Part shown: in pieces, positions 966 through 64,000 of the stretch
How the letters are laid out: every line of letters begins with the position of its first letter
Numbering within the stretch: position 1 is the stretch's first letter
NCBI GenBank assembly: GCA_964187785.1
Contig: OZ076409.1
Location: 76,138,001 to 76,202,000 of the forward strand
Direction: 5' to 3'
DNA: 64,000 nucleotides
Source of the DNA: Amphiscolops sp. MND2022
Lineage: Eukaryota
Program-made: the position numbers and the translations under genes
The notes under the pieces: model-generated
The model's input: the letters and a program-made list of their open reading frames with translations, nothing else
What the model was told of the DNA's origin: nothing
The model's database searches: none

Positions 966-1009
966 GAGTACATTCCATCTCCCTTCCCGGGGGAGATGAG
1001 AATGTACTC
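966..1009. other. Family A long bulged hairpin (first copy)
   Basis: GAGTACATTC-CATCTCCC / variable loop / GGGAGATG-A-GAATGTACTC. One copy per standard family A unit, e.g. 5358, 7915, 12837, 22604, 27745. Confidence 0.85.
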
Positions 1010-1216
1010 GCAAAAAGCCGCGAACTACGGCCCATACCTTCCCGAGATACGCAGTATAAAGATAACATAATGGTCCAGACATTTTAATGGAGTTGTATCT
1101 TGGTAATATGTCTGGATTTGCAGAAAAATCAGCACGTGCCCTTTTATACCAAGTTGCTCGCAACGACAATTAATTTAAATCAACGCCCCCCACAAAAATC
1201 AACGCCCCCCGTCCGT

Positions 1217-1236
1217 GGGCATGCCGAGGCATGCCC
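1217..1236. promoter_or_regulatory. GGGCATGCCGAGGCATGCCC palindrome in the unit tail (first of 23 complete copies); p53-family consensus match and/or subterminal hairpin
   Basis: 9-bp inverted repeat about 35-60 nt upstream of CTAG. It matches RRRCWWGYYY x2 at 19/20 positions with zero spacer. Present in 11 family A tails and all 12 family B tails. Confidence 0.6.
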
Positions 1237-1282
1237 TTCGACGACGTGCACCAAAATATGCCCCGAGCGCGTTAGCAGCTAG

Positions 1283-4200
1283 GTGGCCGGGGGATTCCCC
1301 AATCTTCATTTTGAGGCGCGGGGAGGGTCCTGCGCCGAAGTGAAAAATACCTATTAACAACTAGTATAAAAAATGGTCACTTCTGAAGCCGATTTCGAAA
1401 ACTACCCACACGATTCGCCTAAAAATTTGCATGCGGCTCCCAATCGACATTCTAAGAGCAAATCCCTACTACCAATTTCCTGGGAAAATTCATTTTGATG
1501 GTCAAAATCTCTATTTTAGGTTCCAAAAATGGCATTTTTCTGGAAAATTTTTGTCCCAGAGTCGATTATTCGGAACTGGTGCTTCCAGCGCAGTAAAGCC
1601 TAGCTGATTTATTGTTGGGCACTTCATCAGGAGTCCGTATGCAAATTTTCGTCCAAATCGGATAAAAATTGACTGAGTAATAGCCGCAAATCCGACGATT
1701 TTTTCAGAAAATTTTCGTACATCTAGTCTATCTCTGCCGTTTTTTGCCCAGATTTTTTTCCAGGACCTCTCCTAAAGGCCTCCCCTGGCCGGTTTACCTC
1801 CCAGAAAAACCATTTGACCCTTTTGCCGCAGTTTCAGCGTTCCAGGATTCCCCGGGTAAAAAATAAATGACTTAGAATTTTTTCGAAAAATTTTCAAAAA
1901 TTTTTTTTTCAAATTCAGGCCTCCCAAAGGTAAGAAACTTCCACACAACTAGTATTGCAAGTGAATGCATGTGGAAAGTGCTTGAATAGACGAGAAAAAT
2001 GAGCTATTATAAAACTCTCTAGCTTAACCTGACGTTGACTTATGTTGTTTTGAAGGTGAGATTGGGGTGTGTGAATTACTAAATTTCGTCTAAACACCCA
2101 TTTTTCGTGAAGTCGAAATTCAGCTTTTGAAGCACAAATATTCTTTCTGATGCAACCAGTGGGGCACATGATATTCGAAAAGACCAATAGGATTGGTACA
2201 AGTGGCTCCAATATTACATGGGCAGCGATAAGACGTTATTCATAAAAAAAACTTATCAATTCAAGTAAACATATCGGAAGCCTGGGATCACAGTGAAAAA
2301 TGATTTCATCAAAAATTTACTCGTTTTTGTCAATCACTATGTACACAGAACGCGTACGCTGAGTTTCAGCACTAAAATAAGGTTTTTGAAGTAATCGGGC
2401 TGCTCAATTTGTGGCTTTTTATCATTTGACGTTATTTTGTTGCGTTTCTTATGTCTATTTTGCGTTTTTTTCCTCATAACTTTTTTCCAGGACATCATAG
2501 CCATTTTTGTTGCTCCTACGTTGCGTTGCAGCATCTGAAAACACATCTGCTGACAAACTTTGGTTGAAATCGGATCACCCCCCGCCGAGATAGAGGGGTA
2601 CCCCCCTCCGATTTTACCCCACAATTTTGTAAAAATGCCAATTTTGAGCATGAAGCTGTCGATTTAGCGTGTCCGTACCCTGCTGAAAATTTGTCGGGCG
2701 TAAGGCGTTACAGCTGATAACAGGTATGTTTTTTACCTTGTACCCCCCTGAGACCGAAAATGACATTTTTTATGTACTTTCAGACCGGAAATCAACATTT
2801 TTACAGATTCAAGCCACCCAAAGTCAAGAAACGTCCACACAACTAGGATTGCAAGTGAATGCATGTGGAAAGCCCTTGTTTTAGGGAGAAAAATCCCGTT
2901 TAGAACGTCGTTTTATCTTAACCTGACGTTGACTTATGTTGTTTTGAAGGTGCGATTGGGGTACGTGAAGTACCAAATATAGTCTGAAACACCCATTTTT
3001 CGTGAAGTCGATTTTCGAAATTCGGCTTTTGAAGCACAAATAATCATTCTGACGTAACCAGTGGGGCCCATGATACTCGAAAACACGAATGGTACTGGTA
3101 CCAACGGTTCCAATAACATATGAGCAGCGATAAGACATTATTCATAGCAAAATTTCTCAATTGAAGTAAACATCTGGGAAGCCTGGGATCACAATGAAAA
3201 GTGATTTCATCAAATTTGTACTCATTTTCGTCAATCACTTTGTACACAGAATGCATAGTGTGAGTTTTATCACTTGAATGATGTTTTTGAAGAACTTGGG
3301 CTGGTCAAGGTGATGTATGAGACATTTTTTTCATGTATACTACTATATTTCCTAAAACTTTTAACCCATTATCTCAAAACGCTAACTTTGCAAAATACGT
3401 TCAGTTACTTTATTCAACGATTAGAGTATCGGTGAACGGTGTGGTTGATCAGAAACTCTCAGTTCTTTTGTTTTACGAGATAATTCCCTTCCCATGCGTT
3501 ACATTTGTATCAGAAAAAAAGTAGAAGCTAAAAAATACGCTATTTTGCAAAGATAGAATCGCCACGATTGTGTCTAAAAACACTTTAAACACTTCTAACG
3601 CCACCTTACGGACCCAGGATGGTGGAAAATACCATTCACAATGTTGCAATGTGCTCTTTTTACAATCCAGGTTGAACAATTTTTGTATATTTTACAAGTA
3701 GCTGTTAACTGAATCTTGTGATAGCCTTTCAAGTTGGCCTTGTGTCAACTTGGGAAGGCTATCACCACAAAAAAACACTGAACAAAGTCACTTCTCGTTT
3801 ATGTCGTTTATGGGATAATGCTGGCGATAGTCGTTTTCGTGATTCTTTCCTACCGTTATTAGCTTCCATCAAGTCAGCTATCGATTGCATTCAGTCTTGA
3901 TAAAAACCTTATGAATTCGAAGACCTTTTTCTATTTTTTTTTGACGGCAGTACTTATGAAATTTATATTAAATCTAAACATTTAGTACAATAATTTTAGC
4001 TTTCTTTTACCGTTATCAGCCCCATCCACCCCGTACGTTCTCGTACCCCAACACAACAAATTCTCTGAGTCAACGCCACACACTCGCATCAATGCCCACA
4101 GTCCGTAGGCATGCCGAGATGAACGTCATCATTTTTTTGCCAAGATAACAGAATAAGTTAACATTATGTTGTTTCTCACGCGCAAGAGCGAGATTGAAGA

Positions 4201-4398: not shown

Positions 4399-7300
4399 GT
4401 GGCCGGGAATTTTTTTTCTGCTCAAATCTTTGCCGCTGGGGGAGGGGCCCCTTGCGGCTGCTGTTCGGTTTTACTACCTACCAAAACCTGCTTTTTTTTT
4501 CACGATCTCGAGAACCACCCGTACGATTTTCCTGAAAATTTGCATACAGGCTTAGAATCAAATCCTAAGAACTATTTCCTACTGGCGTTTTTCCGAATTT
4601 TTTCAAAAAGTTGGTCAAAAACGCAACAAAAGTTGCCAATGGACATAAAAAACGCAACTTTTCGACTTTTAGGGCTCATAACTTTTTCCAGAGTGCCCGG
4701 AGCGACCCGTGTGCATCGGACACTTTTGTTCAGCATTCTAGGAAGAGTGCGTGGGCAAATTTTTGTTTAAATCGGACAAAAATTGACTGAGAAATTAACG
4801 CAAATTTTGGTGCATTTTTTGCGAAGACTAGTCTATCTCTGCCATTTTCGCCCAAAACTTTTCCCAGAGCCTTTACAGGAGGCAACCCCTGCCCAAATTT
4901 CTGCCGAGCAAACCCATTTGGCCCTAAATACGAGGTTTCAGCGTTCTAGCATTTCCGGGCAAAAAGTTGTGGGACTTAGAAATTTTTCAAAAAAATGCAA
5001 AAATTGTAAAAAGTAACTTCCGGCGTCCCAAAGTCAAGAAACTTTCACACAACTAGTATTGCAAGTGAATGCATGTGGAAAGTACTTGGATAGACGAGAA
5101 AAATGAGCTATAGAACGACTCTCTAGCTTAATCTGACGTTGACTTATGACATTTTGAGTGTTAGCATCCTATAGGATTTTAATGTCAAAAATGAGATTTT
5201 GTAAGTCATGTCTCATCAAAAACTCGTCGGAATACGTTCAATCATCCCCATAGCTGTTCAATTACTGTGACTTAGTAGAGCAACGCCATTTAATGTCCTT
5301 GGACCCATTTTGAAAATTTTCGTTATCGTCTTATTCGTCCGATATCCCGAAACATTTGAGTACATTCCATCTCTCCCTTAAGGGGGAGATGAGAATGTAC
5401 TCGCCAAACACCTGACACAATGGCCCATATTGGTTTTTATTTGACCTTTCTCACGATTTTACACACGGATAGCTGTGTTTGGTAAAAGTTTTCCATTGCA
5501 CCATGTCTCCAGAAGCTAAACCACTTCTTTAGCCTACTACTTCTACTCAAACATCACTAACGTCAACGCCACATACTCGCATCAACGCCCACCGTCCGTG
5601 GGCATGCCGAGGCATGCCCTTCGACGACGTATGCCAAATAGCGCCACCTGGCGCCCCCAATTTCCGCTAGGTGGCCGGGAATTTTTTTTTCCACATAAAT
5701 CTTTGCCACTGGGGTAGGGGCCCCGAGTGGCTGTTGTTCGGTTTACTTCCCATAGGATTTGCCCGCTGCGGAGACGATCTCAGAAACTAGCCATACGATT
5801 TGGCTCAAACTTGGCACAGAGCCTCCTTGAAAGATTATAAGAACTTTTTCCTAGTGGCGTTTTTCGATTGAAATATTTTATGTTGACCAAAATTGCGTTC
5901 AAAGTGTCCATTGTTGCGTAATTTTTGTCTTTTTCAACTTTGATGGTCCATAACTTTTTTTGAGAAGCCCGGAGCGGGTCGCACGTGGACAACAATATTG
6001 CTCAGCATTAGAAGAGGAGTGTGTGGACAAATTGTCGTCCAGATCGGATGAAAATTGGTTGAGTAATAGCCGGAAGTTTGGCGCATTCCGTCGACTTTTT
6101 CCGAAAACCAAGTCTATCTCTGCCGTTTTTTGCCCAGATTTTTTTCCAGGTCTTCGTCTAAAGGCCTCCCCTGGCCGGTTTACCTCCCAGCAAAACCATT
6201 TGGCCCTAAATACGGAGTTTCAGCATTCCAGCATTCCCCGGGTAAAAGATAAATGACTTAGAATTTTTTCAAAAAATTATCAAAATTTTTTTTTTCAATT
6301 TCAGGCCTCCCAAAGTCAAGAAACTTTCACACAACTAGTATTGCAAGTGAATGCAGGTGGAAAGCACTTGAATAGACGAGAAAAATGAGCTATTATAAAA
6401 CTCTGTAGCTTAACCTGACGTTGACTTATGACAAATTTAGTGTGAACTTCCTATGTGCTAAAAAATCAAAAAACGTAAAAGTCTCTTTGAAAACTAATCG
6501 GAATACGTCCAGTCAACCCCAGAGCTGTTAAATTGCCGTTGTCTAGTGCAGCAACACCATTTAGAGTCTTCTGACCCGTTTTGATACCGTTTTGATACCG
6601 TCTTATTCATCCGATAGCACAAAACTGTTGCGTACATTCCATCTCCCCCTTTGTGGGGGAGATGAGAATGTACCCTCTAAATGACACGCACAATGGCCCA
6701 ATTTTATTTTTATACAACGTTTTCTAGGCTGCCGCGCAAGCCCACTAATATTTAGACTGGTTTCTTTCTCTTTCACTCCAAACTTTCCATGCTAACCACC
6801 TTACACACCACCAGCTCAACGTTACTTCTGTAACGTCAACGCCACATACTCGCATCAACGCCCACCGTCTGTGGGCATGCCGAGGCATGCCCTTCGACGA
6901 CGTATGCCAAATAGCGCCACAGGGCGCCCCCAATTTCCGCTAGGTGGCCGTGTCTTTTCGACGTGCTTTTGCATTGAGGAGTGGGTAGGGCCCCGCGACG
7001 ACCTAGAAGAATTGGATGCTCACCGAAACGTGCAGAATTCTACGAGATCTCATAGTTTGAGCCATACGATTTTTCTGAAATTTGGCATGTGGCCTGGAAT
7101 TGGTGAGTAGGTAAAACGTGTAGGAGGTGATTTTTCCCAAATTCCACTGTGAGACGAGATATGGGCAAATAACGGTCCCAAAAATGGCAAAAATGCACTT
7201 TTTTCAACTTTGTCAGCCCATATCTCGTTCCCAGGTGCCCGGAGCGGGACGCGTTAAGCTGATTATAAACTCTAGGGTGTTGAGGCTGTACGGTGAACTT

Positions 7301-8212
7301 GGGCCCGTTCCGATCGGACTTGTAGTCTTGGAGAAATAACGGTATTTTTGGGGAACCTTTTCTAACGGTCCAGCTTATCTTTGCCATTTTTTCGAAAATG
7401 TACTCGCCTAAAGGCCTCCCCCTGGCCGAATTTACTCCCAGCAAAACCATTTGGCCCTAAATACGGAGTTTCAGCGTTCCAGCATTCCCGGGCGAAAAGT
7501 TCTGGGACTTGGAAAATTTTCAAAAATTTTCAAAAATTTTTTTTTTCGTTTTCCGGGCCCCCAATGAAGGGGAAACGACCCCCCAACCAGTATTTTGAGT
7601 TAATTCATGTGGAAAGCCCTTGTTTTGACGAGAAAAATACCGTTTAGAACATCTTTTTATCTTGACTCAACGTTGACTTATGACGTTTTGAATGTGATGT
7701 AAGGATGTAGGAGGCATGTGATAAGTTGATGTTTTGAGTCTTTATCTCATATGAAAGCGGTTGAGATGCAAGCTGTCCTGCTCAAAACGTCTTTCGTTGT
7801 AATTTTCCAGTGCACCAATACCCTTTGGTGTCATATAAACATACTTTTTGTCGATATATTAACAATTTTAATGTATTTATTCCAATTTTTATTATCTTAT
7901 AACTCAAAACAGTTGAGTACATTTCATCTCCCTTTCGGGGGAGATGAGAATGTACTCGCTAAAGACCTAGCGCCATGACCAAAAGTTTGAAACCTACGTT
8001 TTTTATCTTCTTACAGACTTGTTTTTGTATTTTTTCGGAATTTTTTAAAAATTAATATACTTGAAATACATTACTTGACTTTACTACTACAACCCACCTC
8101 CAACGACAACGCCCCCCTGCTTGCATCAACGCCCACCGTCCGTGGGCATGCCGAGGCATGCCCTTCGACGACGTATGCCAAATGCCCAGTGCCACGCAGT
8201 CATTATCGCTAG

Positions 8213-10593
8213 GTGGTCGGGGCGCTCTCCCAACCTCTTCCGCCGCCTCGGGGAGGGTCCTGATTGGCGGCACCCCTTATGGAAAACTTACTGTTAGAAA
8301 CGCACCAGTGTAATGCTGATTTCGAAAACCACCCGTACGATTTTGCTCAAATTTTGCATGTAGCTCCCAAATTCCAATACAAGAACTAATTCCTACTGCC
8401 ATTTTTCCGGGAAAACTCAAAAAGTTGGTCAAAAATGACATTTTCTGAGTGAAAAATGGCCATTTTTTGACTTTTTTATTTTTGATCGGCTATAACTTTT
8501 TCCAGGGTGCTCGGATCGAAAAAAGTTTGTATAGGTAAAGTTGTTTGGCACTTCGCGTAGAACTCGTAGACAAATTTTGGTTGAGATCGGATGAAAATTG
8601 ACTGAGAAATAACCGAAAAACCATCGATTTTTTGAAAAAAATTTTGACACACTAGTATGACTCTGCCGTTTTTCGGCCAAAGTTCTTTCTAGAACCTCGT
8701 CTAAAGTCCTCCCCTGGCTGAATTACCTCCCAGCAAAACCATTTGGCCCATTTGCCGAAGTTTCAGCGTTCCAGCATTCCCCGGGTAAAAGATAAATGAC
8801 TTAGAATTTTTACAAAAAAATTTCAAAAAAAAATAATTTTTTCTTCAAGCTTCCCAAAGTCAGGGAACTTCCACACAACTAGTATTGCAAGTGAATGCAT
8901 GTGGAAAGTGCTTGAATAGACGAGAAAAATGAGCTATAGAACGACTCTGTAGCTTAACCTGACGTTGACTTATGACAATTTGAGTACGTGCTTGCTATGT
9001 GGTGAAATTGAGAAACAACCTAAAATGAAAGCTAAGTCTGATCTAAAACTTACCGAATTGCTTTTATTCAGCCCCAAAGCTGTTCAATTGCCGCTATGTA
9101 GTGCAGCAACACTATCCAAGGCTTTTTAGGACGTTTTTAAGATGTCATTATGTTCTTTTTGGACAGTTTTTTTTGTACAAATAGGACTTTATTTTTCGGG
9201 ACCTAACACTTTTTGCCAAAAAAGTCAAACTTCGTCCACACAACTTAGATTGCAAGTGAATGCATGCGGAGAGTGCATGAAGTGATGAGGAAAATGAGCT
9301 ATAGAACGCCCGTTTCCGACAACTTGACATGGACTTATAAGAGTTTGAAAAATCACAAAAAAAATGAACAACAATTCACTAACAGCGAGTTTGTAGTAAA
9401 TGGCCCATATTTCCATACACAAGATTCTCAGCACAATTCTATACCTTTTCGTTTTTGTTGTCCGTGATTGTGCAACAAATAAGTATTGGTAAAAGTTTCT
9501 GTAAAACATCGCCGGAAAGAGAAAAATGCGGAGTTTATGAGTAATTTTGTTTGAAAAATGACAAAATAGTCTATCTCTGCCGTTTCAGCACAAATTTTTT
9601 AAAAAAAGACGCCCAGTAGGTAACCCATGGGCTAATTTCGTCTCAACAAAACGGTTGGGGTCATTTGCCGCAGTTTTAGCTTTATAGCATTCTCCGGGTA
9701 AAAGTTGTTGAACTTAGAAAATTTTTGAAATTTTTTCAAATTTTTTTTTTTAACTTCAGGCGGCCCAAAGTCAAGAAACTTCCACACAACTAGGATTGCA
9801 AGTAGATGCATGTGGAAAGCCCAGTAATTGGGGAGAAAAATGCCGTTTAGAACGTCTCTTTATCGTAACTTGATGTTGACTTATGATTCTTTAAATGGGA
9901 GCTTGATTTGAGGTTAAGAAGTCAAAGTGTGTAAATGGAACGTAAGTCTGGTCAAAAACTCATTGGAATACATGCAATGAACCTCAACTTATCCTCAATT
10001 ACAGTTGTCTAGTGCAAAGGTCTTTCAAAGTTGTTTAACTTCTTTTGATAAGTGTTGATGGTATAAACCATCAGTTATAGAGAAACACGTAAGTACATTC
10101 TCATCTCTCCCCATCGGGGGAGATGAGAATGTACTCACCAAAGGTCAAAACTACTAAATGCCTTTTTTCTGTACCATTTTATGTCACTGTCGAAACAAAC
10201 ATAAACAAATTAGTTTCCGACTCCTCCTTGGGGTTTTGGTTTGACTTCTGTAAAAAAAAGGGTACGAGGACTTGGAGATCTTTTAAGTGTTCCAAAAGAG
10301 ACCTCCTATTTCACACCGTGGAAAACTTGAAGACATTTGTCATGAAATCACCTACTAGGCTTCTCTCTGAGTACGCAAGTTCAATAAGTAACACATTTTA
10401 TCTTCCATATTTGCTCCGATGACCAGGATTGGAAACTAAATTAACCCAAGGTACTTAGCCAAAACGAGCAATACCAACTTTTGATTGAAAACCTCATCAC
10501 AGTTTTTCTTTGAAAATTACCTTCATTGACTTCTCAATTTATCAACTCAATCTCCTTAAGCGGCCCTATTTTGACACAAGCCTGCAGCGCTAG
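8213..10593 (+). repeat. Composite 2.4-kb unit with extra headless, diverged core copies
   Basis: Core blocks recur at ~9220-9345 and ~9565-9890 without a CTAGGTG junction. A single long hairpin lies at ~10092-10137. Confidence 0.75.
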
Positions 10594-13500
10594 GTGGCCG
10601 GGAATTTTTTTTTCAGCAAAATCTTTGCCGCTGGGGGAGGGGCCCCGGGCGGCTGTTAACCGGAATTCATACTATGCAAAACCTATCACAATTCTCAGAT
10701 CTCAGGATCCAGCCTGTAGGATTCGCTCAAATTTGGCACAGAGCCTCCTTGAAAGATTATAAGAACTTTTTCCTAGTGGCGTTTTTCGATTGAAATATTT
10801 TATGTTGACCAAAATTGCGTTTAAAATGCCCATTGTTGCGTTTTTATTGTCTTTTTCGAATTTGACGGTCCATAACTTTTTTTGAGGTGCTCGGAGCGGG
10901 TCGCACGTGGAGAACAATAGTACTCAGCACTAAAAGGGGAGTGCGTGAACAAAATTTCGTCCAAATCGGATGAAAATTGGATGAGTAATAGCCGGAAATT
11001 TGGCGCATTTTGTCGACTTTTTTCGAAAACCCAGTCTATCTCTGCCGTTTTTTGCCCAGATTTTTTTCCAGGTCCTCGCCTAAAGGCCTCCCCTGGCCGG
11101 TTTACATCCCAAAAAAGCCATTTGGCCCTTTTGCCGCAGTTTCAGCGTTCCAGCGTTTCCCGAATAAAAGATAAATGACTTAGAATTTTTTCAAAAATTG
11201 TTCAAAAATTTTTTTTTCAATTTCAGGCCTCCCAAAGTCAAGAAACTTCTACACAACTAGTATTGCAAGTGAATGCATGTGGAAAGTGCTTGAATAGACG
11301 AGGAAAATGAGCTATTATAAAACTCTGTAGCTTAACCTGACGTTGACTTATGACATTTTTAGTGTGAGCTTCCTATGTGCTAAAAAATCAAAAAAACGTA
11401 AGTCTCTTTGAAAACAAATCGGAATACGTCCAGTCAACCCCAGAGCTGGTAAATTGCCGTTGTCTAGTGCAGCAACGCCATTTAGAGTCTTTTGACCCAC
11501 TTTGATACCGTTTTGATACCGTCTTATTCATCCGATAGCACAAAACTGTTGCGTACATTCCATCTCCCCCTTTATGGGGGAGATGAGAATGTACCCGCTA
11601 AATGACACGCACAATGGCGCAATTTTATTTTTATACAATGTTTTCTAGGGTTTCGCGCAAGCCCACTAATATTTAGACTGGTTTTTTCCTCTTTCACTCC
11701 AAACTTTCCCTACTAACCACCTTACACACCATCAGCTCAACGTTACTTCTGTAACGTCAACGCCACATACTCGCATCAACGCCCACCGTCCGTGGGCATG
11801 CCGAGGCATGCCCTTCGACGACGTATGCCCATTAGCGCCACAGGGCGCCCAATTTTTTCTAGGTGCCGGGATTTCTATTCGATAAAGTATGTGGCGCGTG
11901 TGGGTAGGGTCCCTGGCGCGCTCTTGGGTATGGTGTTCACCAGCTAGGAAATAGGGGTCGATTTTTCGGGATCTCCTAAACTAGCCACACGATTTGGCTG
12001 AAATTTGGCACACGTACTCCCCTCGGCACGGTGAAGATGATTTCCTACTGACGTTTTTCACGCAAAATTTTTTTTGTTGTCCAAAATAACGGTTTTTGGG
12101 GTAAAATTTTGAATTTTTTTTAAATTTTATCTTATATCTCGCCACCGGTTTACGCTAGCGCTTCAAAACCCTGCTAAAGAAAGCTTGCAAACTGTCTCAG
12201 GAATGCGTTGTGAAATTTTCAGCTCAATCGGACTTAAACTCGGGGAGATATAGCGTTTTTCCGGAGCGGGGGGGTTTCATTTTTCTAACGGTCCAGCTTA
12301 TCTTTGCCATTTTTTCGAAAATGCACTCGCCTAAAGGCCTCCCCTGGCCAGTTTTATTCCCAGCAAAACCATTTGGCCCTAAATACGGAGTTTCAGCGTT
12401 CCAGCATTCCCGGGCGAAAAGTTGTGGGACTTAGAAAAGTTCAAAAATTTTCAAAAAATTTTTTTTCCGTTTTCCGCCCTCCCCCCCTAGGGGAAAAGAC
12501 CCCCCAACCAGTAATTTGAGTGAATTCATGTGGAAAGGCCATGTTTAGAGGAGAAAAATGCCGTTTAGAACGTCTTTTTATCTTGGCTCAACGTTGACTT
12601 ATGACGTTTTGAATGTGATGTTTGGAAGGTGTGAAGCACGTGAAAAGTAAACGTTATGAGTAATTATCTGATCTGAAAGCCATTGAGATGCAACCTGTTT
12701 TGCTCAAAACATAATTCATATCCGTTTAGTAGTCAATCAACACCCTTTGTTGTCGTTTGACATCTTTTTTTGTTGATATAAGAAAAAATTTTGTGTATTT
12801 ATTCATTTTTTTCTCATCAAATAACTTGAAACAGTTGAGTACATTCCATCCCCCCTTCACGGGGGAGATGAGAATGTACTCGCAAAAAGCCTCAAACAAC
12901 GGCCCTTACCTTCCTGAGCTACGCAGTATAAAGATTGCATATTGGTTCCGACATTTTGATAGAGTTATATCTTGGTAATCTGTCTGGATATGCAGAAAAA
13001 CCAGCACGTGCTTTTTTATACCAAGTTGCTCACAACGACATTTATTTTATATCAACGCCCCCATATTTATCAACGCCCCCCGTCCGTGGGCATGCCGAGG
13101 CATGCCCTTCGACGACGTATACCAAGATATGTTCGAGCGCGTTAGCCTAGGTGCCAATCCCCCCCGGGATGCCACAACTTCGAGGGCGGGGTAGGGCCCC
13201 CTGCCCGAGTCCAAATCCAACGGCGCTAAACTTCGCGCCTATAACGTAAGGCGTTTTCCATTTCTAGAGGCGATCTCGAAAACGGCCCTATAGAATTGGC
13301 TCAAAATTTGCATACGGCTTCCTCTAGCGATTCTAAGAACTTTTCCCTACTACCGTTTTGCCCAAAAAAATTTTTTTGTTGACTTATAGACAATTTTAGG
13401 TGCCGAAAATGGCGTTTTTTCGAAAAATTTTTTTTCAAGAGCCCATATCTCGCTCCCAGGTGCTCGGAGCGGGTCGCATGTGGACGTCGATATTGCTAGG

Positions 13501-13980
13501 CACTTCGTAAGGAGTCCGTAGACAAATTTTCGTACAGATCGGATGAAAATTGACTTAGTAATAAAAAACTTTGATTTGCATTTTTTCGAAAATTTATGAA
13601 ATCCCAGTGTATCTCTGCCGTTTTTTGCCCAGATTTTTTCCAGGACCTCTCCTAAAGACCTCCCCTGGCCGGTTTACCTCCCAGAAAAACCATTTGGCCC
13701 TTTTGCCGCAGTTTCAGCGTTCCAGAATTCCCCGGGTAAAAGTAAAATGACTTAGAATTTTTTCGAAAAATTTTCAAAAAATTTTTTTTCAACTTCAAGC
13801 CTCCCAAAGTCAAGAAACTTCCACACAACTAATATTGCAAGTGGATGCATGTGGAAAGTGCTCGAATAGACGAGAAAAATGAGCTATTATAAAAGTCTGT
13901 AGCTTAACCTGACGTTGACTTATGACAATTTTGAGTATAAGTGAATTTTAAATTCATGGTATTTCTAACTAATTTTTTTT

Positions 13981-14167
13981 CTTTTTCCAGGTGTCGGAGT
14001 TAACTTTTCTGCGTACAGGTAATGTTTAGTTACAGGTTACGTCTGGTAAGTTTGCGGTAGGGTTGTGAGCAGCGAATTATGTTTGAATGAATTTCCAGTT
14101 ATCCTTAATCTTTGTCATGAAGCGATGCCTTTCTCTGGTGATGTCTAACACAACAGCGTTTTTTAAG
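13981..14167 (+). other. Putative spliced 5' UTR of the Rep gene
   Basis: Polypyrimidine tract plus acceptor ctttttccag| at 13990, candidate donors cag|gtaatg (14019) and ctg|gtaagt (14046), and candidate acceptor ttttaag| at 14167 upstream of ATG 14186. Confidence 0.45.
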
Positions 14168-14185
14168 ATTTGATTTGCATTGATT

Positions 14186-17824: not shown

Positions 17825-18076
17825 AACTTGCGCTTTGTCAGTTTAAGCCCTTTAGGTGCTTAAACTGACTTTTTTCCTCTCTTTTCTCTTCTTTTCCGCC
17901 TTTTTCTTTTTTAGGGTTCTGGCGACGTGGAAGAGTGGAGAGGAAACTTGGCCTGCTTGCAGGATTGCCAGCTGTCTTCGTGGAAAAAGTTGTGCTTGTC
18001 TACGTCCTTGCTTCAACTTGGACCCGAAGCAGCTGTCTCACAAATTGCGCCCAGTTTGCCAAGTTTTCTGGGTTGA

Positions 18077-19859: not shown

Positions 19860-19894
19860 TGTGATGCAGAAAATACTAGCTACATTCAGCGCTG

Positions 19895-53000: not shown

Positions 53001-56000
53001 TGTTTTTGGGTAGGTATATGTTGCATTAGTACCAATTAGAGCTTCATCAACAGTTTGCCAACGGCAAAAACGATGTCGTGATAATTCCGTTATAAGAATA
53101 TTAATTAAAAAATTGTTTACAAAGTTGATTTTTTTCATTTAAAATGTGTCCTAATGCCACCAAATTGAATAAAATAATAAATGGTATTGACTAAAACTAA
53201 ATAACATTGAAAAAGAAGATCAACATTTTTATTAGGTCTCATTATGGAAGCTGAAACCTCACGTTTTAACTTGATTAACGTCAACGCCACATACTTTACA
53301 TCAACGCCCACCGTCTGTGGGCATGCCGAGGCATGCCCTTCGACGACGTATACCAAACAACCTCCATATCTACACCCGATTGCGGTAGCAGCTAGGTGCG
53401 GGGGGGTAACCCCAACAAATATATTGGAGGATTCGGGTAGGGTCCTGAATCCGATTTTAACTCTAATAGCTATCGATAGGAAATCTTGCAAAAATTTCGG
53501 GATCTCGTGATCTAACCATAGGATTTTAAAGTTGGAGCGGCCCCCACCAGATTTTCCGAAAATTAGCGCCCCCCACCGGGTTCCATACCCCGGGAAATTT
53601 TTTTCTGGCCACACGGGCGACCGTTAGGGGGTCATTTTAGGGGTAAAATTCATATTGGGCCACATAACTTTTTTTCTGTTGATTTAAAACTTTGGAACCC
53701 TGCTAAAAGTTTCTTGACCGTGTTGCAGGGGCCCCGAAGGTCCAAACCAAATTTTTCTATCTTGAAGCTATCTCCAAGTACCCCCCCGCTCAAACCGTTA
53801 TTTTTCCGGAAACGCAGGTTTTTGACCCGGAAGGAGTCGTCTGAGCGCGGGGTCGTTAGGTGATGTATTGGGGACGGCCTTGAGACGAAGTGGGGGACAA
53901 GTAGTTTGCCAACCTCAATTTACCCCCCGGACGGGAAATGACCGTTATATGAGCGTGAAAAATGCCCCCCTCCACGTTTCACCGCTATTTCCGGTGTGAA
54001 GGAGTGGGAGTAGCGCGTCGGGTGTTATATAACAAAAGTAGGTTTAGACAAGGACCTATCGGAAACATGTAGTTTGGGACCCCCTGGACCAACCCGTTAG
54101 CGGGAAATGGGGCTTCCGCCTCCTTTTTTTGGTGCTAAAACCGTAAAATGGGCATTGAGGGGTAAATATCTCGTGAACGCGTGGAGCAATCGTGTCCATC
54201 ACTACTACAAGGTTTCATACCCATGATATGGTGCCTTCAGGGGGGCAAACAGATTTCCGCTATCTATCACCGTTACCGACTTGGCCCCCCAGCCTAACCG
54301 CTATGTGACCGGAAATGTCACTTTTTGAGCCCAAAGGGTCGGTCCCAGCTGGGGAACGTTAGGTAACTTATTGTAGTACTCAATGAGACGAGTTGGGGGA
54401 TATAGTTTCAGTCACCCCCCGTTACCCCTTGGGACCGGAAATGACCGTTATGTGGGTAAAATTGCAATTTTTATACCTTTTCAAGTGTATTTAGGTGCGG
54501 AAGGAGTGGTAATAGGTGCTTGGACACTATATGAGGTAAGGGAGGACGTGAGGCGAGCATTCGGAAATAACCGTTATGTTGACCCTAAAGTCCCCCTGGT
54601 ACCGTAAACGACCGGAAATGGTCAAATTTTGTGTCTATTGGGTACAAATGTTTTGTATTTTGTAGGTAAAAGTATCTATTAGGTGTTTCGACGGTCTACA
54701 GTAGTGAACATAGTCATGAAACCTTGTGGGGGGTAACGGTATATAGCACCGGAAGTCAAACCGTTGGAGACAGGATAGGTTTTTTGGTTTTAAAATGTCT
54801 TTCGGCGTAATTTTTTCGACTCTTGTGGACTATTTTTAAAAATTAAAGTTTTTCCATATAGTTTCAGAGACTCCGAAACCTCAACCAACATAACCGTTAC
54901 CTTATGATAGCCTTTCAAGTTGGCCTGGTGTCAACTTGGAAGCGCTATCCTTCTGAAATCGTTAATCAAGAGTGTTTTTGGGTAGGTATATATTGCATTA
55001 GTACCAATTAGAGCTTCATCAACAGTGTATCAACGACAAAAACTATGCCGTCATGATTCCGTTATTAGAATCATAGTGAGCAAATTGTTGAAAAAAATGG
55101 TTTTTTCCATACAAAATGTGTCCTAAATGCCAGGAAACCTATTTACCTAACAAATGGTATTAATTGGAATGTTTGTAACAGATTTATAAAAGTTCAAATT
55201 GAATATTACATTTCATTATGGAAGCTGAAACGTCATATTTTAGTTTAATTAACGTCAACGCCACACACTTTACATCAACGCACACCGTCTGTGGGCATGC
55301 CGAGGCATGCCCTTCGACGACGTATGACAAATCCTTATCAAACGACGCCCGTATATCCCGGGCTAGGTGCGGGGGGGTAACCCCAACAAAGATATTGGAG
55401 GATTCGGGTAGGGTCCTGAATCCGATCTTAGTACCGTCAGCTATCAGTAGAAAATTTCCCTCAAAAACCGGGATCTCGGGAACTAACCGTAGGATTTGAA
55501 AGTTGGAGCGGCCCCCACCAGATTTTCCCGAATAGATCGCCCCCCACCGGGCTCCATACCCCGGAAAATTTTTTTTTGGCCACACGGGCGACAGTTAGGG
55601 GGTCATTTTAGGGGTAAAATTCATATTGGTCCATATAACTTTTTTCCTGTTGGTTTAAAAGTTTGGGAACCCTTCTAAAGGTTTTTCGACCATGTTGCAA
55701 GGGCTCCGGAGGTGCAAACCAAATTTTTCTATCTTGAAGCTATCTCCAAGTACCCCCCCGCTCAAACCGTTATTTTTCCGGAAACGCAGGTTTTTGACCC
55801 GGAAGGAGTCGTCTGAGCGCGGGGTCGTTAGGTGATGTTTTGGGGACGGCCTTGAGACAAAGTGGGGGACAAGTAGTTTGCCAACCTCAATTTACCCCCC
55901 GGACGGGAAATGACCGTTATATGAGCGTGAAAAATGCCCCCCTCCACGTTTTACCGCTATTTCCGGTGTGAAGGTGTGGGAGTAGCGCGTCGGGTGCCAT

Positions 56001-59000
56001 ATATCAAAAGTAGGTTTAGACAAGGATCTATCAAAAACATGTGGTTTGGGACCCCCTGACCCAACCCGTTAGCGGGAAATGGGGCTTCCGCCTCCTTTTT
56101 TTTCGGTTAAAAACGGAAAATGGGCATTGAGGGGTAAATATCTCGTGAACGCGTGGAGCTACGGTGTCCTTCACTACTACAAGGTTTCATACCCATGATA
56201 TGGTGCCTTCAGGGGGGCAAACAGATTTCCGCTATCTATCACCGTTACGGACTTGGCCCCCCAGCCTAACCGCTATGTGACCGGAAATGTCACTTTTTGA
56301 GCCCAAAGTGTCGGTCCCAGCCAGGGAACGTTAGATAACTTTTTGTAGTACTCATTGAGACGAGTTGGGGGACATAGTTTCAGTCACCCCCTGTTACCCC
56401 TTGTGACCGGAAATGACCGTTATGTGGGTAAAATTGGGATTTTTGTACTTTTTGAAGGGCAATTAGGTGCGGAAGGAGTGGTAATAGGTGCTTGGACACT
56501 ATATGATGGAATGGAGGACGTGAGGCGAACATTCAGACATAACCGTTATGTTGACCCTAAAGTCCCCCTGGTACCGTAAACGACCGGAAATGGTCAAATT
56601 TTGTGTCTATTGGGTACAAATGTTTGGTATTTTGTAAATAAAAGTATCTATTAGGTGTTTCGACGGTCTGCAGTAGTGAACATAGTCATGAAACCTTGTG
56701 GGGGGTAACGGTATATAGCACCGGAAGTCCAAAACGTTAGAGACGGGATAGGTTTTTCCGTTTTAAAATGTCTTTCGGCGTACTTTTGTCAACTAATATG
56801 GAATATTTTTTAAAATTAAAGTTTTTCCATATAGTTTCAGAGACTCCCAAACCTCAAACAACATAACCGTTACCTTATGATAGCCTTTCAAGTTGGCCTG
56901 GTGTCAACTTGGAAGGGCTATCCTTCAAAAATCGTTGATCAAGTGTGTTTTTGGGTATGTTTGAATCATTTTAGAATCAATTAGAGCTTCAAGAAATGTT
57001 TGCCAACGACAAAAACTATGTCGTGATGATTCCGTTATTAGAGTGATAGTTAACAAAATATTGATTAAGTTGATTTTTTACATTTCAAAAGTGTCCTAAA
57101 AGCCAGAAAACCTCTTTACCAAACAAATGGTATTGATTGGATTGTATATAACAGGTAATAAAAGTTCAAATTGATTATTACGTTTTATTATGTAAGCTGA
57201 AACGTCATATTATAGTTTAATTAACGTCAACGCCACATACTTTACATCAACGTCCGCCGTCTGTGGGCATGCCGAGGCATGCCCTTCGACGACGTATACC
57301 AAATACATTTCATATCTACACCCTAACCGCGGTAGCAGCTAGGTGCGGGGGGGTAACCCCTACAAAGATATTGGAGGATTCGGGTAGGGTCCTGAATCCG
57401 ATCTTAGTACCGCCAGCTATCAGTAGAAAATTTCCCTCAAAAACCGGGATCTCGGGAACTAACCGTAGGATTTGAAAGTTGGAGCGGCCCCCACCAGATT
57501 TTCCCAAATAGATCGCCCCCCACCGGGCTCCATACCCCGGAAAATTTTTTTTTGGCCACACGGGCGACTGTTAGGGGGTCATTTTAGGGGTAAAATTCAT
57601 ATTGGTCCATATAACTTTTTTCCTGTTGGTTTAAAAGTTTGGGAACACTTCTAAAGGTTTTTCGACCATGTTGCAAGGGCTCCGGAGGTGCAAACCAAAT
57701 TTTTCTATCTTGAAGCTATCTCCAAGTACCCCCCCGCTCAAACCGTTATTTTTCCGGAAACGCAGGTTTTTGACCCGGAAGGAGTCGTCTGAGCGCGGGG
57801 TCGTTAGGTGATGTTTTGGGGACGGCCTTGAGACAAAGTGGGGGACATGTAGTTTTCCAACCTCAATTTACCCCCCGGACGGGAAATGACCGTTATATGA
57901 GCGTGAAAAATGCCCCCCTCCACGTTTTACCGCTATTTCCGGTGTGAAGGTGTGGGAGTAGCGCGTCGGGTGCCATATATCAAAAGTAGGTTTAGACAAG
58001 GATCTATCAAAAACATGTGGTTTGGGACCCCCTGACCCAACCCGTTAGCGGGAAATGGGGCTTCCGCCTCCTTTTTTTTCGGTTAAAAACGGAAAATGGG
58101 CATTGAGGGGTAAATATCTCGTGAACGCGTGGAGCTACGGTGTCCTTCACTACTACAAGGTTTCATACCCATGATATGGTGCCTTCAGGGGGGCAAACAG
58201 ATTTCCGCTATCTATCACCGTTACGGACTTGGCCCCCCAGCCTAACCGCTATGTGACCGGAAATGTCACTTTTTGAGCCCAAAGGGTCGGTCCCAGCCAG
58301 GGAACGTTAGATAACTTTTTGTAGTACTCATTGAGACGAGTTGGGGGACATAGTTTCAGTCACCCCCCGTTACCCCTTGTGACCGGAAATGACCGTTATG
58401 TGGGTAAAATTGGGATTTTTGTACTTTTTGAAGGGCAATTAGGTGCGGAAGGAGTGGTAATAGGTGCTTGGACACTATATGATGGAATGGAGGACGTGAG
58501 GCGAACATTCAGACATAACCGTTATGTTGACCCTAAAGTCCCCCTGGTACCGTAATTGACCGGAAATGGTCAAATTTTGTGTCTATTGGGTACAAATGTT
58601 TGGTATTTTGTAAATAAAAGTATCTATTAGGTGTTTCGACGGTCTGCAGTAGTGAACATAGTCATGAAACCTTGTGGGGGGTAACGGTATATAGCACCGG
58701 AAGTCCAAAACGTTAGAGACGGGATAGGTTTTTCCGTTTTAAAATGTCTTTCGGCGTACTTTTGTCAACTAATATGGAATATTTTTTAAAATTAAAGTTT
58801 TTCCATATAGTTTCAGAGACTCCCAAACCTCAAACAACATAACCGTTACCTTATGATAGCCTTTCAAGTTGGCCTGGTGTCAACTTGGAAGGGCTATCCT
58901 TCACAAATCGTTGATCAAGTGTGTTTTTGGGTATGTTTGAATCATTTTAGAATCATTTAGAGCTTCAAGAAATGTTTGCCAACGACAAAAACTATGTCGT

Positions 59001-62000
59001 GATGATTCCGTTATTAGAGTAATAGTTAACAAAATATTGATTAATTTGATTTTTTACATTTCAAAAGTGTCCTAAAAGCCAGAAAACCTCTTTACCAAAC
59101 AAATGGTATTGATTGGATTGTATATAACAGGTAATAAAAGTTCAAATTGATTTTTACGTTTTATTATGTAAGCTGAAACGTCATATTATAGTTTAATTAA
59201 CGTCAACGCCACATACTTTACACCAACGCCCACCGTCTGTGGGCATGCCGAGGCATGCCCTTCGACGACGTATACCAAATACATTTCATATCTACACCCA
59301 CCCGCGGTAGCAGCTAGGTGCGGGGGGGTAACCCCTACAAAGATATTGGAGGATTCGGGTAGGGTCCTGAATCCGAGTTCAGTGCTGCCAGCTATCGTTA
59401 GGGATTTGAGAAAATTTTGCCGATCTCGTGATCTAACCGTAGGATTTTAAAGTTGGAGCGGCCCCCACCAGATTTTCTAAAGTTATTCGCCCCCCACCGG
59501 GTTCCAGCGTGATTGAAATATTTTGACGGGGTACACGGGCGACCGTTAGGGGTCATTTTGGGGGTAAAATTTATATCCGGTCGCATAACTTTTTTCCTGT
59601 TGGTTTAAAACTTTGGGACCCTGCTAAAAGTTTCTTGACCTTGTTGCAGTGGCTCCGGAGGTCCAAACCAAATTTTTCTATCTTGAAGCTATCTCCAAGT
59701 ACCCCCCCGCCCAAACCGTTATTTTTCCGGAAACGCAGGTTTTTGACCCGGAAGGAGTCGTCTGAGCGCGGGGTCGTTAGGTGATGTATTGGGGACGGCC
59801 TTGAGACGAAGCGGGGGACATGTAGTTTGCCGACCCCAGTTTACCCCCCGGACGGGAAATGACCGTTATTTGAGCGGGAAAAATGCCCCCCTCCACGTTT
59901 TACCGCTATTTCCGGTGTGAAGGAGTGGGAGTAGCGCGTCGGGTGTTATATATCAAAAGTAGGTTTAGACAAGGACCTATCAGAAACATGTAGTTTTGGA
60001 CCCCCTGGTCCAACCCGTTAGCAGGAAATGGGGCTTCCGCCTCCTTTTTTTACTGCTAAAACCGTAAAATGGGCATTGAGGGGTAAATATCTCGTGAACG
60101 CGTGGAGCTACAGTGTCCATCACTACTACAAGGTTTCATACCCATGATATGGTGCCTTCAGGGGGGCAAACAGATTTCCGCTATCTATCACCGTTACGGA
60201 CTTGGCCCCCCAGCCTAACCGCTATGTGACCGGAAATGTCACTTTTTGAGCCCAAAGGGTCGGTCCCAGCCAGGGAACGTTAGGTAACTTATTGTAGTAC
60301 TCAATGAGACGAGTTGGGGGACATAGTTTCAGTCACCCCCCGTTACCCCTTGGGACCGGAAATGACCGTTATGTGGGTAAAATTGCAATATATGTACTTT
60401 TTAAAGGACTTTTAGATGCGGAAGGAGTGGTAATAGGTGCTTGGACACTATATGATGATAGGGAGGACGTGAGGCGAGCATTCGGAAATAACCGTTATGT
60501 TGACCCTAAAGTCTCCCTGGTACCGGAAGTGACCCGTAATGGTCAAATTTTGTGGTTAAAGGTTACAAATGTTTGGTGTTCAATGGATAACAGTACCTAT
60601 TAGGTGTTTCGACGGTCTGCAGTCGTGAACATAGTCATGAAACCTTGTGGGGGGTAACGGTATATAGCACCGGAAGTGCAAACCGTTGGAGACAGGATAA
60701 GTTTTTTGGTTTTAAAATGTCTTTCGGCCTACTTTTGTTGACAATTATGGACTATTTTTGAAAAATAAAGTTTTTCCATATAGTTTCAGAGACTCCGAAA
60801 CCTCAACCAACATAACCGTTACCTTATGATAGCCTTTCAAGTTGGCCTGGTGTCAACTTGGAAGGGCTATCCTTCAAAAATCATTAATCAAGTGTGTTTT
60901 TGAGTATGTTTGTTTTACTTTAGAATCAATTAGAGCTTCAAGAAAAGTTTGCCAATGATAAAAACTATGTCGTGATGATTCCGTTATTAGAATAATAGTT
61001 AACAAAATATTGATAAAGTTGATTTTTTACATTTCAAATGTGTTCTGAATGCCAGAAAAACTCTTTACCAAACAAATGGTATTGATTGGATTGTATATAA
61101 CAGCTAATAAAAGTTCAAATTGAATATTACGTTTCATTATGGAAGCTGAAACGTCAAATTATAGTTTAATTAACGTCAACGCCACATAGTTTACATCAAC
61201 GCCCACCGTCTGTGGGCATGCCGAGGCATGCCCTTCGACGACGTATACCAAATTCCTCCAACACAACACCCCCGAGCGCGTTAGCAGCTAGGTGCGGGGG
61301 GGAAACCCCATCCCTTATCTTGGAGGATTCGGGTAGGGTCCTGAATCCGATCTTAGTTCGCCCAGCTCTCAGTAGAAATCTGGGAAATTTTTTGCGATCT
61401 CGTGATCTAACCATAGGATTTTAAAGTTGGAGCGGCCCCCACCAGATTTTCCAAAGTTATTCCTCCCCACCGGGTTCCAGCGTGATTGAAATATTTTGAC
61501 GGGGTACACGGGCGACCGTTAGGGGTCATTTTGGGGGTAAAATTTATATCCGGTCGCATAACTTTTTTCCTGTTGGATTAAAACTTTGGGACCCTACTAA
61601 AAGTTTCTTGACCGTGTTGCGGGGGCTCCGGAGGTCCAAACCAAATTTTTCTATCTTGAAGCTATCTCCAAGTACCCCCCCGCCCAAAACGTTATTTTTC
61701 CGGAAACGCAGGTTTTTGACCCGGAAGGAGTCGTCGGAGCGCGGGGTCGTTAGGTGATGTATTGGGGACGGCCTTAAGACGAAGTGGGGGACATGCAGTT
61801 TGCCAACCCCAGTTTACCCCCCGGACGGGAAATGACCGTTATATGAGCGGGAAAAATGCCCCCCTCCACGTTTTACCGCTATTTCCGGTGTGAAGGAGTG
61901 GGAGTAGCGCGTCGGGTGCCATATATCAAAAGTAGGTTTGAACAAGGAACTATCGGAAACATGTGGTTTGGGACCCCCTGGACCAACCCGTTAGCGGGAA

Positions 62001-64000
62001 ATGGGGCTTCCGCCTCCTTTTTTTACTGCTAAAACAGTAAAATGGGCATTGAGGGGTAAATATCTCGTGAACGCGTGGAGCAATCGTGTCCATCACTACT
62101 ACAAGGTTTCATACCCATGATATGGTGCCTTCAGGGGGGCAAACAGATTTCCGCTATCTATCACCGTTACCGACTTGGCCCCCCAGCCTAACCGCTATGT
62201 GACCGGAAATGTCACTTTTTGAGCCCAAAGGGTCGGTCCCAGCCGGGGAACGTTAGGTAAATTATTGTAGTACTCAATGAGACGAGTTGGGGGATATAGT
62301 TTCAGTCACCCCCCGTTACCCCTTGGGACCGGAAATGACCGTTATGTGGGTAAAATTGCAATTTTTATACTTTTTCAAGTGTATTTAGGTGCGGAAGGAG
62401 TGGTAATAGGTGCTTGGACACTATATGAGGCAAGGGAGGACGTGAGGCGAGCATTCGGAAATAACCGTTATGTTGACCCTAAAGTCCCCCTGGTACCGTA
62501 AACGACCGGAAATGGTCAAATTTTGTGTCTATTGGGTACAAATGTTTAGTATTTTGTAGATAAAAGTATCTATTAGGTGTTTCGACGGTCTGCAGTAGTG
62601 AACATAGTCATGAAACCTTGTGGGGGGTAACGGTATATAGCACCGGAAGTCCAAACCGTTGGTGACAGGATAGGTTTTTTGGTTTTAAAATGTCTTTCGG
62701 CGTACCTTTGTCGACTATTAAGGACTATTTTTAAAAATTAAAGATTTTCCATATAGTTTCAGAGACCTCGAAACCTCAACCAACATAACCGTTACCTCAT
62801 GATAGCCTTTCAAGTTGGCCTGGTGTCAACTTGGAAGGGCTATCCTTCAAAAATCGTCAATCAAGTGTGTTTTTGGGTATGTTTGTATCATTTTAGAATC
62901 AATTAGAGCTTCAAGAAAAGTTTCCCAACAACAAAAACTATGTCGTGAAGATTCCGTTACTAGAATTATAGTTAGCAAATTGTTGAGAAAATTTTTTTTT
63001 CCAAATTAAATGTGTCCTAAATGCCAGGAAACCTATTTTACTAACAAATGGTATTGATTGGAATGTATGTAACAGATTTATAAAAGTTCAAATTGATTAT
63101 TAGGTTTCATTATGGAAGCTGAAACGTAATATTTTAGTTTAATTAACGTCAACGCCACACACTTTACATCAACGCCCACCGTCTGTGGGCATGCCGAGGC
63201 ATGCCCTTCGACGACGTATACCAAATACATACCTAACGACGCCCGTACATCCCGGGCTAGGTGCGGGGGGGAAACCCCATCCCTTATCTTGGAGGATTCG
63301 GGTAGGGTCCTGAATCCGATTTTAGTTCGCCCAGCTCTCAGTAGAAATCTGGGAAATTTTTTGCGATCTCGTGATCTAACCATAGGATTTTAAAGTTGGA
63401 GCGGCCCCCACCAGATTTTCCAAAGTTATTCGCCCCCCACCGGGTTCCAGCGTGATTGAAATATTTTGACGGGGTACACGGGCGACCGTTAGGGGTCATT
63501 TTGGGGGTAAAATTTATATCCGGTCGCATAACTTTTTTCCTGTTGGATTAAAACTTTGGGACCCTGCTAAAAGTTTCTTGACCGTGTTGCGGGGGCTCCG
63601 GAGGTCCAAACCAAATTTTTCTATCTTGAAGCTATCTCCAAGTACCCCCCCGCCCAAAACGTTATTTTTCCGGAAACGCAGGTTTTTGACCCGGAAGGAG
63701 TCGTCGGAGCGCGGGGTCGTTAGGTGATGTATTGGGGACGGCCTTGAGACGAAGTGGGGGACATGCAGTTTACCAACCCCAGTTTACCCCCCGGACGGGA
63801 AATGACCGTTATATGAGCGGGAAAAATGCCCCCCTCCACGTTTTACCGCTATTTCCGGTGTGAAGGAGTGGGAGTAGCGCGTCGGGTGCCATATATCAAA
63901 AGTAGGTTTGAACAAGGAACTATCGGAAACATGTGGTTTGGGACCCCCTGGACCAACCCGTTAGCAGGAAATGGGGCTTCCGTCCCGTTTTTTTACGGTT

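Follow-up and report, generated by a model that had tools for sequence, protein, structure and literature searches.

We analyzed a 64,000-nucleotide (nt) stretch of the Amphiscolops sp. MND2022 genome, here called the window (positions 76138001-76202000 of contig C1, OZ076409.1, in a 1.07-Gb genome). The repeat units in the window are Helitron-type rolling-circle transposons with GTG...CTAG ends that are stacked head to tail, an identity that the original prediction for this DNA did not state. Judged from its sequence, the long hairpin in these units is a real, strongly conserved and uncatalogued cis element of a Helitron variant, and its role is a matter of inference. Our tentative reading is that the hairpin acts as an internal cis signal on the displaced plus strand, where it would prime second-strand synthesis. 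The original prediction had offered three candidate roles: a small-RNA precursor, an RNA 3'-processing signal and a second-strand origin. The last of these appears to fit best.

A motif scan of the window located hairpins of types A, B and C where they had been placed before, spanning 966-62844. The scan returned 21 matches to the A 5' arm, 22 to the A 3' arm, 13 to B and one to C; the 22nd A 3'-arm match (10091-10136) has one base more and lacks the bulge. As predicted, exactly one hairpin is present in each of the 35 complete units (21 A, 13 B and 1 C). A hairpins start 284-316 nt upstream of the unit end (500 nt in one double-core unit), B hairpins 459-463 nt upstream (678 nt in a 3.1-kb unit) and the C hairpin 478 nt upstream. 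The C hairpin begins 35 nt past the stop codon of open reading frame 2 (ORF2; stop at 19859), also as described. The three types are unrelated in sequence (similarity p = 0.99, 0.84 and 0.63), and a B-C kinship that we suspected by eye was not supported (p = 0.63). Two parts of the original description need amending. The slot was said to hold three unrelated sequences, but it holds many more. The hairpins were said to be bulged, which is usual but not obligatory, with perfect stems seen in A (at 10091) and B. One B hairpin (3720..3763) lies in a unit with an A-type 5' part, so the slot takes either type.

The same arrangement extends across the genome. We folded 19 hairpin sequence types of 36-52 nt, and a few more of 35-57 nt occur besides; type letters beyond A-C were assigned in this analysis. 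Among 222 distinct gene-less units of 0.9-5 kb, 216 contain exactly one hairpin of type A, B, D, E or F. Five of the remaining six have two hairpins (three of these span an overlooked junction), and the last has a variant that escaped our pattern. The hairpin lies 201-635 nt before the end of gene-less units, or 1,510 nt in one double unit. Exact A arms occur 2,772 times genome-wide (control 4) and B arms 2,045 times (control 1), some perfect stems being counted twice, and there are at least 4,255 unit junctions (control 15). The one-hairpin rule, together with arm counts of the order of the junction count, speaks for a requirement for the hairpin in cis.

The arms are conserved amid divergent flanks, the pattern on which the original claim of function had been staked (0.82-0.96 in arms versus 0.46-0.59 in flanks). 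Identity in the A family is 0.96/0.93 in the arms, 0.59/0.46 in the flanks and 0.56 in the loop (31 representatives, 58% identical overall), which bears out the earlier remark that the A loop is free to vary. In the B family it is 0.90/0.82 in the arms and 0.49/0.50 in the flanks, over a baseline of 0.42 (22 representatives). The compensatory change reported at 22604 was confirmed, but the A family as a whole shows no significant covariation (2 of 15 pairs, a score reached by 209 of 500 shuffles). The C family does covary, with 7 of 17 pairs against 0 of 500 shuffles, in a shuffle control that is inflated by related rows. The terminal A pair, where the 22604 change occurred, is broken in 11 of 55 variants, and the family shows sequence conservation rather than covariation. 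The two bases opposite the A bulge are free to vary, usually keeping one pairing G. These comparisons largely contradict the notion that the hairpins have no role and owe their similarity to recent gene conversion or the swapping of modules, which we regard as highly improbable. Units are indeed mosaics of modules, and B hairpins are found in A-core units. Conversion would homogenize the loop too, yet the loop stands at 0.56 between arms at 0.93-0.96, and the compensatory changes in C and the one-per-unit rule across unrelated families further oppose this idea.

The single coding unit in the window ties these repeats to Helitrons. A full-length twin lies 290 kb from it, and where their coding sequences were compared the two are 100% identical, save for the deletion that removed the helicase and GIY-YIG parts of RepHel in the window copy (join near 17761). 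The twin encodes a 2,372-amino-acid (aa) RepHel with a PIF1 helicase and a C-terminal GIY-YIG domain, a 220-aa ORF and ORF2. The full-length RepHel ORF matches Helitron_like_N at 39.7 bits and PIF1 at 44.9 bits, both above cut-off, and its HUH motif is conserved; an HUH Rep joined to a PIF1 helicase is the defining combination of the Helitron-like superfamily. Full-length elements of 12.4-14.8 kb start with the ~750-nt core of the A units and finish in CTAG, and we therefore consider A, B and the other short units to be non-autonomous derivatives.

The product of ORF2 is a predicted OB-fold single-strand binder. Its model (predicted local distance difference test score, pLDDT, 92) resembles in its N-terminal half the OB folds of MCM10, RPA70 and Teb1, with moderate Z scores of 9.0, 7.9 and 7.9 and root-mean-square deviations (rmsd) of 3.2-5.5 over 102-112 aligned residues; Foldseek agrees. 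The 220-aa ORF between RepHel and ORF2 (L016:4776-5435), which the window copy has lost to the deletion, matches no entry in Pfam or NCBIfam. We noted a weak GDSL-lipase lead for it in a protein atlas (21-30% of members).

The ends of the units define an insertion target. All 36 of the head-to-tail junctions in the window read CTAG|GTG, and CTGG and CTTG variants of the 3' end occur elsewhere in the genome. The GTG start is likewise seen in units at the edges of arrays and in a solo unit, and copies of the coding element terminate at CTAG, followed by differing flanks. A solo 1,256-nt A unit has inserted in a young repeat, and 12 of 12 fetched paralogues of the repeat are empty at CTTG|GT, a site that alone is ambiguous over 6 nt. 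Another family has inserted at CTGG|GA of a host repeat, found empty 12 times, and its own end is CTTG. The CTGG on the left and CTTG on the right rule out a duplicated tetramer. Insertion leaves no target-site duplication and adds no bases, as is characteristic of the superfamily. The target is CT(A/T/G)G|G, and units stack because their own junction recreates it; in one end class, GTG follows 39 of 42 ends. The bacterial transposon IS91 targets CTTG. Identical units have different neighbors in 7 of 7 groups of at least three copies, so units arrive or move one at a time and are selected singly. Gene-less copies that move singly should keep just what they need in cis.

The hairpins fold more stably than shuffled sequence and tend to prefer one strand. 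On the + strand they reach fold z-scores of -6.0, -3.6 and -3.7 with RNA parameters and of -6.0, -2.6 and -3.6 with DNA parameters. A folding window at or below -20 kcal/mol was present in 44 of 45 sampled units, as against 2 of 45 dinucleotide shuffles. The + strand gives the better fold in 18 of 19 hairpin types with RNA parameters and in 16 of 19 with DNA parameters. G.T appositions outnumber A.C on this strand by 38:3 in B and 28:11 in A when counted over variants, and by 7:2 and 7:3 over positions. The hairpin might instead act in the transcript, where a protein would bind it to stabilize, export or localize the RNA. This is consistent with the many G.U pairs and with the conserved internal loops in the G and upstream types, whose RNA energies are 6-10 kcal/mol better on the + strand. 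Several hairpin types lie 35-360 nt past a stop codon. Gene-less units would need their own transcription from the 5' core, and this core is conserved at 0.8-0.9. However, an RNA signal has no obvious use for a gene-less DNA transposon, and RepHel of the family in the window has no hairpin directly behind it. Loops of the c(UUCG)g or GNRA kind are not enriched, occurring in 0 of 42 A variants and 0 of 26 B variants. Rfam gave 0 matches at the gathering score in the window, and the long hairpins matched nothing at E values up to 5 (17 kb). We consider a role in RNA unlikely.

The position of the hairpin varies among full-length elements, which bears on whether it could be a rolling-circle terminator displaced inward or a signal for the mRNA 3' end. 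The spacers that hold hairpins precede RepHel, follow it or follow ORF2, and at least one hairpin is present in 16 of 17 full-length elements (7 of 7 and 9 of 10). The Helraiser hairpin is a terminator (PMC4778049), 13 of the 35 units in the window lack a short subterminal palindrome that is present in the other 22, and the C hairpin follows a stop codon closely. In Helraiser the hairpin spans 19 nt and sits 11 nt from the end (PMC4778049), whereas the distances here run from 200 nt to 13 kb. Where the palindrome is present, the long hairpin is kept alongside it (106 of 133 A and 57 of 57 B). CTAG downstream of the hairpin is not consistently depleted across families, and hairpins upstream of RepHel would end copying or transcription prematurely. 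Poly(A) hexamers do not follow the hairpin: AATAAA and ATTAAA are absent within 120 nt downstream of 132/132 A and 67/70 B hairpins. A further argument against the originally suggested 3'-processing signal is that 14 of 29 ORF2 copies lack a long hairpin behind them, and three full-length elements carry hairpins exclusively upstream of RepHel. Both a terminator and a 3'-end signal are thus quite improbable.

The uniform size (~20 bp), the invariant and seed-like lower stem of A and the free loop are features that short small-RNA precursors could share. Such precursors could be miR-451-like or Drosha-independent, and the array would then be a transposon-borne small-RNA cluster. Canonical pre-miRNAs and other Microprocessor substrates have stems of ~33-35 bp. 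The stems here lack a basal stem and have a median length of 18-22 bp, with 10 of 212 reaching 28 bp. The C stem undergoes compensatory turnover, both A arms are equally invariant, and the arms have no second match in full-length elements. In addition, a product that acts in trans from thousands of copies would not sustain selection on each copy. The pre-miRNA proposal therefore seems improbable, chiefly on its short stems and the turnover in C, although the invariant A core could still be a seed.

The GIY-YIG domain of RepHel points to a putative nuclease that could read the hairpin. This C-terminal domain is of the SLX1 type in sequence and predicted fold. It matches SLX1/HIGLE by profile (E 7e-7), and its model (pLDDT 88) aligns with SLX1/HIGLE structures at Z scores of 11.9, 10.8 and 10.2 (rmsd 2.7-3.0, 105-111 aligned residues). 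The hairpin might then be a single-stranded DNA structure that the domain binds or cuts while processing or resolving the displaced strand. SLX1 is reported to cut stem-loops (PMC8599992), and bacterial Ssn GIY-YIG nucleases are described as reading the stem sequence and ignoring the loop (PMC11893778), as in the A-family pattern. None of 11 full-length units tested has A or B arms of its own, which argues against a key-and-lock pairing, and several families have retained hairpins despite erosion of their catalytic-motif residues. A crossover test found the lowest adjacent-segment correlation at the hairpin (0.38), with near-identical pairs still linked (0.87/0.73), a mixed outcome that gives no clear excess of recent crossovers there. 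The domain could instead resolve integration intermediates. We view a nuclease substrate as a rather unlikely role. Motif residues are eroded in the divergent families L140, L144, L146, L149 and L151, the domain lies in a frame separate from RepHel in L033, and a 2,578-aa relative (P0175) has an OTU domain (PF02338) besides PIF1 and GIY-YIG.

We return to priming of the second strand. RepHel would nick at a junction and peel off the plus strand, which would be coated by the element's own OB-fold protein. The ~20-bp hairpin would stay folded and free of protein and would recruit host primase, and the resulting double-stranded circle would insert at another junction. Any stable hairpin family could fill the slot under this scheme, and each copy would keep a hairpin because each needs one in cis. 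Helraiser, from which we assume the displaced strand, is described as moving its plus strand through circles that must be double-stranded (PMC5876387). How they become so is left open in that account, which proposes lagging-strand synthesis or a circovirus-like primer and reports that single-stranded circles failed to be converted after transfection (PMC5876387). The stem-loops that serve as single-strand origins in plasmids work in one orientation and lie mostly upstream of the nick site (PMC4595007), and the hairpins here likewise lie upstream of the nick site in a gene-less circle. A c(GNA)g apex occurs in 6 of 13 hairpin groups, against 0.6 expected. GNA loops are reported to be far more stable in DNA than in RNA, to bind single-strand-binding protein (SSB) poorly and to occur at the priming sites of phage G4 and RSF1010 (PMC13037366). 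A hairpin that is free in position, favors the plus strand and is interchangeable, together with these parallels, leads us to favor, with caution, a site of priming or SSB exclusion.

Several observations weigh against this assignment. The A core is invariant in sequence over 7 bp, which exceeds the need of a priming site recognized by structure only. The asymmetry of z-scores between strands is clear for B alone, with A and C alike on both strands, and G.T pairing is no less suited to RNA than to DNA. The excess of c(GNA)g apices comes from a post hoc test whose groups may be related; none of A, B and C has this apex, and a hairpin related to one GNA type has an AAA loop. One of ten full-length elements lacks a hairpin, and the long spacers were counted without a shuffled control. 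In the three elements with upstream hairpins, these lie near the 5' end alone, 10-13 kb from the 3' end. Host primase is not known to require a hairpin. Finally, the Helraiser authors explain double-stranded circles by ordinary lagging-strand synthesis (PMC5876387).

A broader proposal is that this is an animal Helitron lineage with a plasmid-like cycle, which would combine its own SSB, interchangeable hairpin priming sites, SLX1-type processing and a target identical to the circle junction. We hold this as a doubtful but possible synthesis. If it is true, a eukaryotic transposon would use these hairpins as single-strand origins, an arrangement for which we found no description in the literature searched, and dozens of families and their parasites would pile into shared multi-megabase arrays. 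Second-strand synthesis on the peeled-off Helitron strand is a still-unexplained step. Thousands of natural mini-elements with a minimal cis kit (5' core, one hairpin and 3' end), along with natural hairpin swaps, make this question directly testable. We found no published description of a junction-targeting GTG-ended lineage or of interchangeable internal hairpins in a search that had Repbase, subscription papers and HELIANO supplements outside it. The non-canonical ends, the short target that equals the element's own junction and the SLX1-type domain mean that structure-based finders built on TC...CTRR are likely to miss the lineage.

We compared the lineage with known Helitron groups. It belongs to the Helitron superfamily and departs from three HLE1 features and from the HLE2 features tested, as those groups are defined in PMC11417382. 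Like HLE1 (Helraiser), it has an HUH Rep and PIF1 helicase in one ORF, a CTAG 3' end, no added bases at insertion, an OB-fold or RPA-like gene downstream of RepHel, non-autonomous derivatives with both ends in common, and head-to-tail junctions (PMC4778049, PMC5876387, PMC11417382). Its 3' end conforms to the CTRR of HLE1. In contrast, the units start with GTG rather than TC, the empty sites are CTTG|GT and CTGG|GA rather than A|T, and the palindrome lies ~60-76 nt from the end (in 22/35, absent in 13) rather than ~11 nt. The 2,372-aa RepHel with its fused SLX1-type domain also differs, with a weak helicase match to Helraiser (E 1.6e-4), as do the internal 35-57-nt hairpin at least 200 nt from the end and the arrays, which mix many families and are not repeats of one. 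Head-to-tail Helitron arrays are already known (PMC5876387, PMC12001565), and active wheat Helitrons are reported to use A|T targets (PMC13286980). Within HLE2 (Helitron2/Helentron), a GIY-YIG domain is reported once, captured in HelenSM92 (PMC11417382). The lineage here has a target other than the T|T of HLE2, no match to its DUF6570 marker and, as judged by eye, no evident terminal inverted repeats at junctions.

Telomere-targeting Helitrons of Paramecium also build a same-orientation compartment through sequence-targeted insertion, but their target is the telomeric repeat and not the elements' own junction, and an internal hairpin is not described in the account covered (PMC13085455). Single-strand origins of rolling-circle plasmids, ICEBs1 and phage G4 resemble the role proposed for our hairpins: they are orientation-specific stem-loops that fold in the displaced strand, for the most part upstream of where it is nicked. 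They can be redundant, and some priming sites have GNA mini-hairpins (PMC4595007, PMC13037366). These origins are bacterial, often ~200 nt with several stems, and are read by RNA polymerase or DnaG/RepB'; their activity has been demonstrated, whereas the origins proposed here are putative and deduced from sequence (PMC4595007, PMC13037366). The Ssn SRM/NTS hairpins and SLX1 offer a parallel, in that hairpins whose stems are conserved and whose loops vary accompany a gene for a GIY-YIG nuclease (PMC11893778, PMC8599992). Here the domain is fused to RepHel and is closer to SLX1/HIGLE than to the single-domain bacterial proteins, and hairpin types are not matched to particular nuclease families. 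In the part of a centromere atlas preprint that we cover, Helitrons are mentioned in general terms only (10.64898/2026.09.17.752431). Homologue searches returned 23 and 25 RepHel-GIY-YIG-like proteins, some 25-40% identical, without taxon or context. Among the matches listed, none in viral or metagenome contigs was a relative of this lineage, four loci having generic helicase motifs alone; ORF2 and the A pattern had no match in viral contigs.

Junctions in C1 from 70.7 to 76.0 Mb had one orientation in 17 of 17 sampled 10-kb stretches, and three stretches outside had none. A ~6-Mb repeat block of single orientation can arise through repeated self-insertion rather than unequal crossing-over. 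Single-orientation arrays that mix many unrelated Helitron families, autonomous and gene-less, were observed at C1 ~70.5-76.5 Mb (~6 Mb, the largest) and further at C1:3.5, C1:38.1, C2:102-103.9 and C3:2.4-2.8 Mb. Tandem arrays of the 3' part only (ORF2 fragment, C hairpin and CTAG end) occur in L005-L012 (C1:4.38-4.40 Mb) and L053 with a period of ~1.6-1.8 kb, and those in C1 are joined as CTAG|TACT. Features of the window are collected in Table 1.

Table 1. Positions of Helitron units, genes and hairpins within the 64,000-nt window.
Feature	Position	Strand	Remarks
Coding unit, Helitron	13151..20373	+	5,254-nt internal deletion relative to the 12,482-nt full-length copy at C1:76.42 Mb; A-unit 5' core
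RepHel ORF remnant, 1212 aa	14186..17824	+	Helitron_like_N, HUH motif; deletion join near 17761
ORF2, 338 aa	18843..19859	+	Predicted OB-fold, resembles MCM10/RPA/Teb1 single-strand binders
Block of 21 A-type gene-less units (mostly 1.25-1.31 kb) and the coding unit	4399..39526	+	
Block of 12 B-type gene-less units (1.97-1.99 kb)	39527..63260	+	
Head-to-tail junction CTAG|GTG, one of 36	20370..20376	+	Element 3' end abuts 5' end of next element
End of ~750-nt 5' core common to A units and full-length elements (example)	5134..5148	+	
Short subterminal palindrome, ~60-76 nt before unit end (example)	5600..5619	+	Separate from the long hairpin
A-type hairpin, first of 22	966..1009	+	~19 bp, one-base 3' bulge, free pyrimidine-rich loop
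Further A-type hairpins (starts)	5358, 6630, 7915, 10091, 11551, 12837, 21344, 22603, 23879, 25177, 26461	+	
Further A-type hairpins (starts, continued)	27745, 29015, 30296, 31549, 32804, 34054, 35345, 36635, 37939, 39215	+	
A-type variant without bulge	10091..10136	+	Within 2.4-kb double-core unit
A-type hairpin with two-sided change at outer pair	22603..22650	+	
B-type hairpin in 3.1-kb unit	3720..3763	+	Unit has A-type 5' part
B-type hairpin, first of 12 in the 2-kb block	41039..41082	+	G.T pairs favor + strand
Further B-type hairpins (starts)	43035, 45007, 46997, 48968, 50940, 52934, 54906, 56879, 58855, 60828, 62801	+	
C-type hairpin	19895..19944	+	35 nt past ORF2 stop; family covaries across related full-length elements

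Additional features were noted around the genes and unit ends. Between the core and the start of RepHel, positions 13960-14025 contain a pyrimidine tract and CAG that resemble a splice acceptor, as well as a GTAATG that resembles a donor, which together suggest a small 5' exon or a trans-splice site. A 24-nt bulged hairpin with a 5-nt loop occurs in 1-5 copies 3' of ORF2 in several full-length families (L013, L024, L026, L029 and L031). We considered a small nuclear RNA (snRNA)-type promoter in the unit core and rejected it, as U2 upstream regions have no proximal element in common with this core. In a tandem U2 snRNA repeat (L134), the last 15 nt of the unit core have a near-match on the reverse strand ~230 nt 5' of U2, which may reflect chance or a shared factor site. 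The first 50 nt of a unit (for example 39527-39575) comprise an invariant GTG, a variable stretch that often has a small G/C hairpin and, ~40 nt in, a fixed G-rich motif. Within A units, variation in the first 120 nt tracks that in the last 85 nt (rho 0.64) more closely than either end tracks the core.

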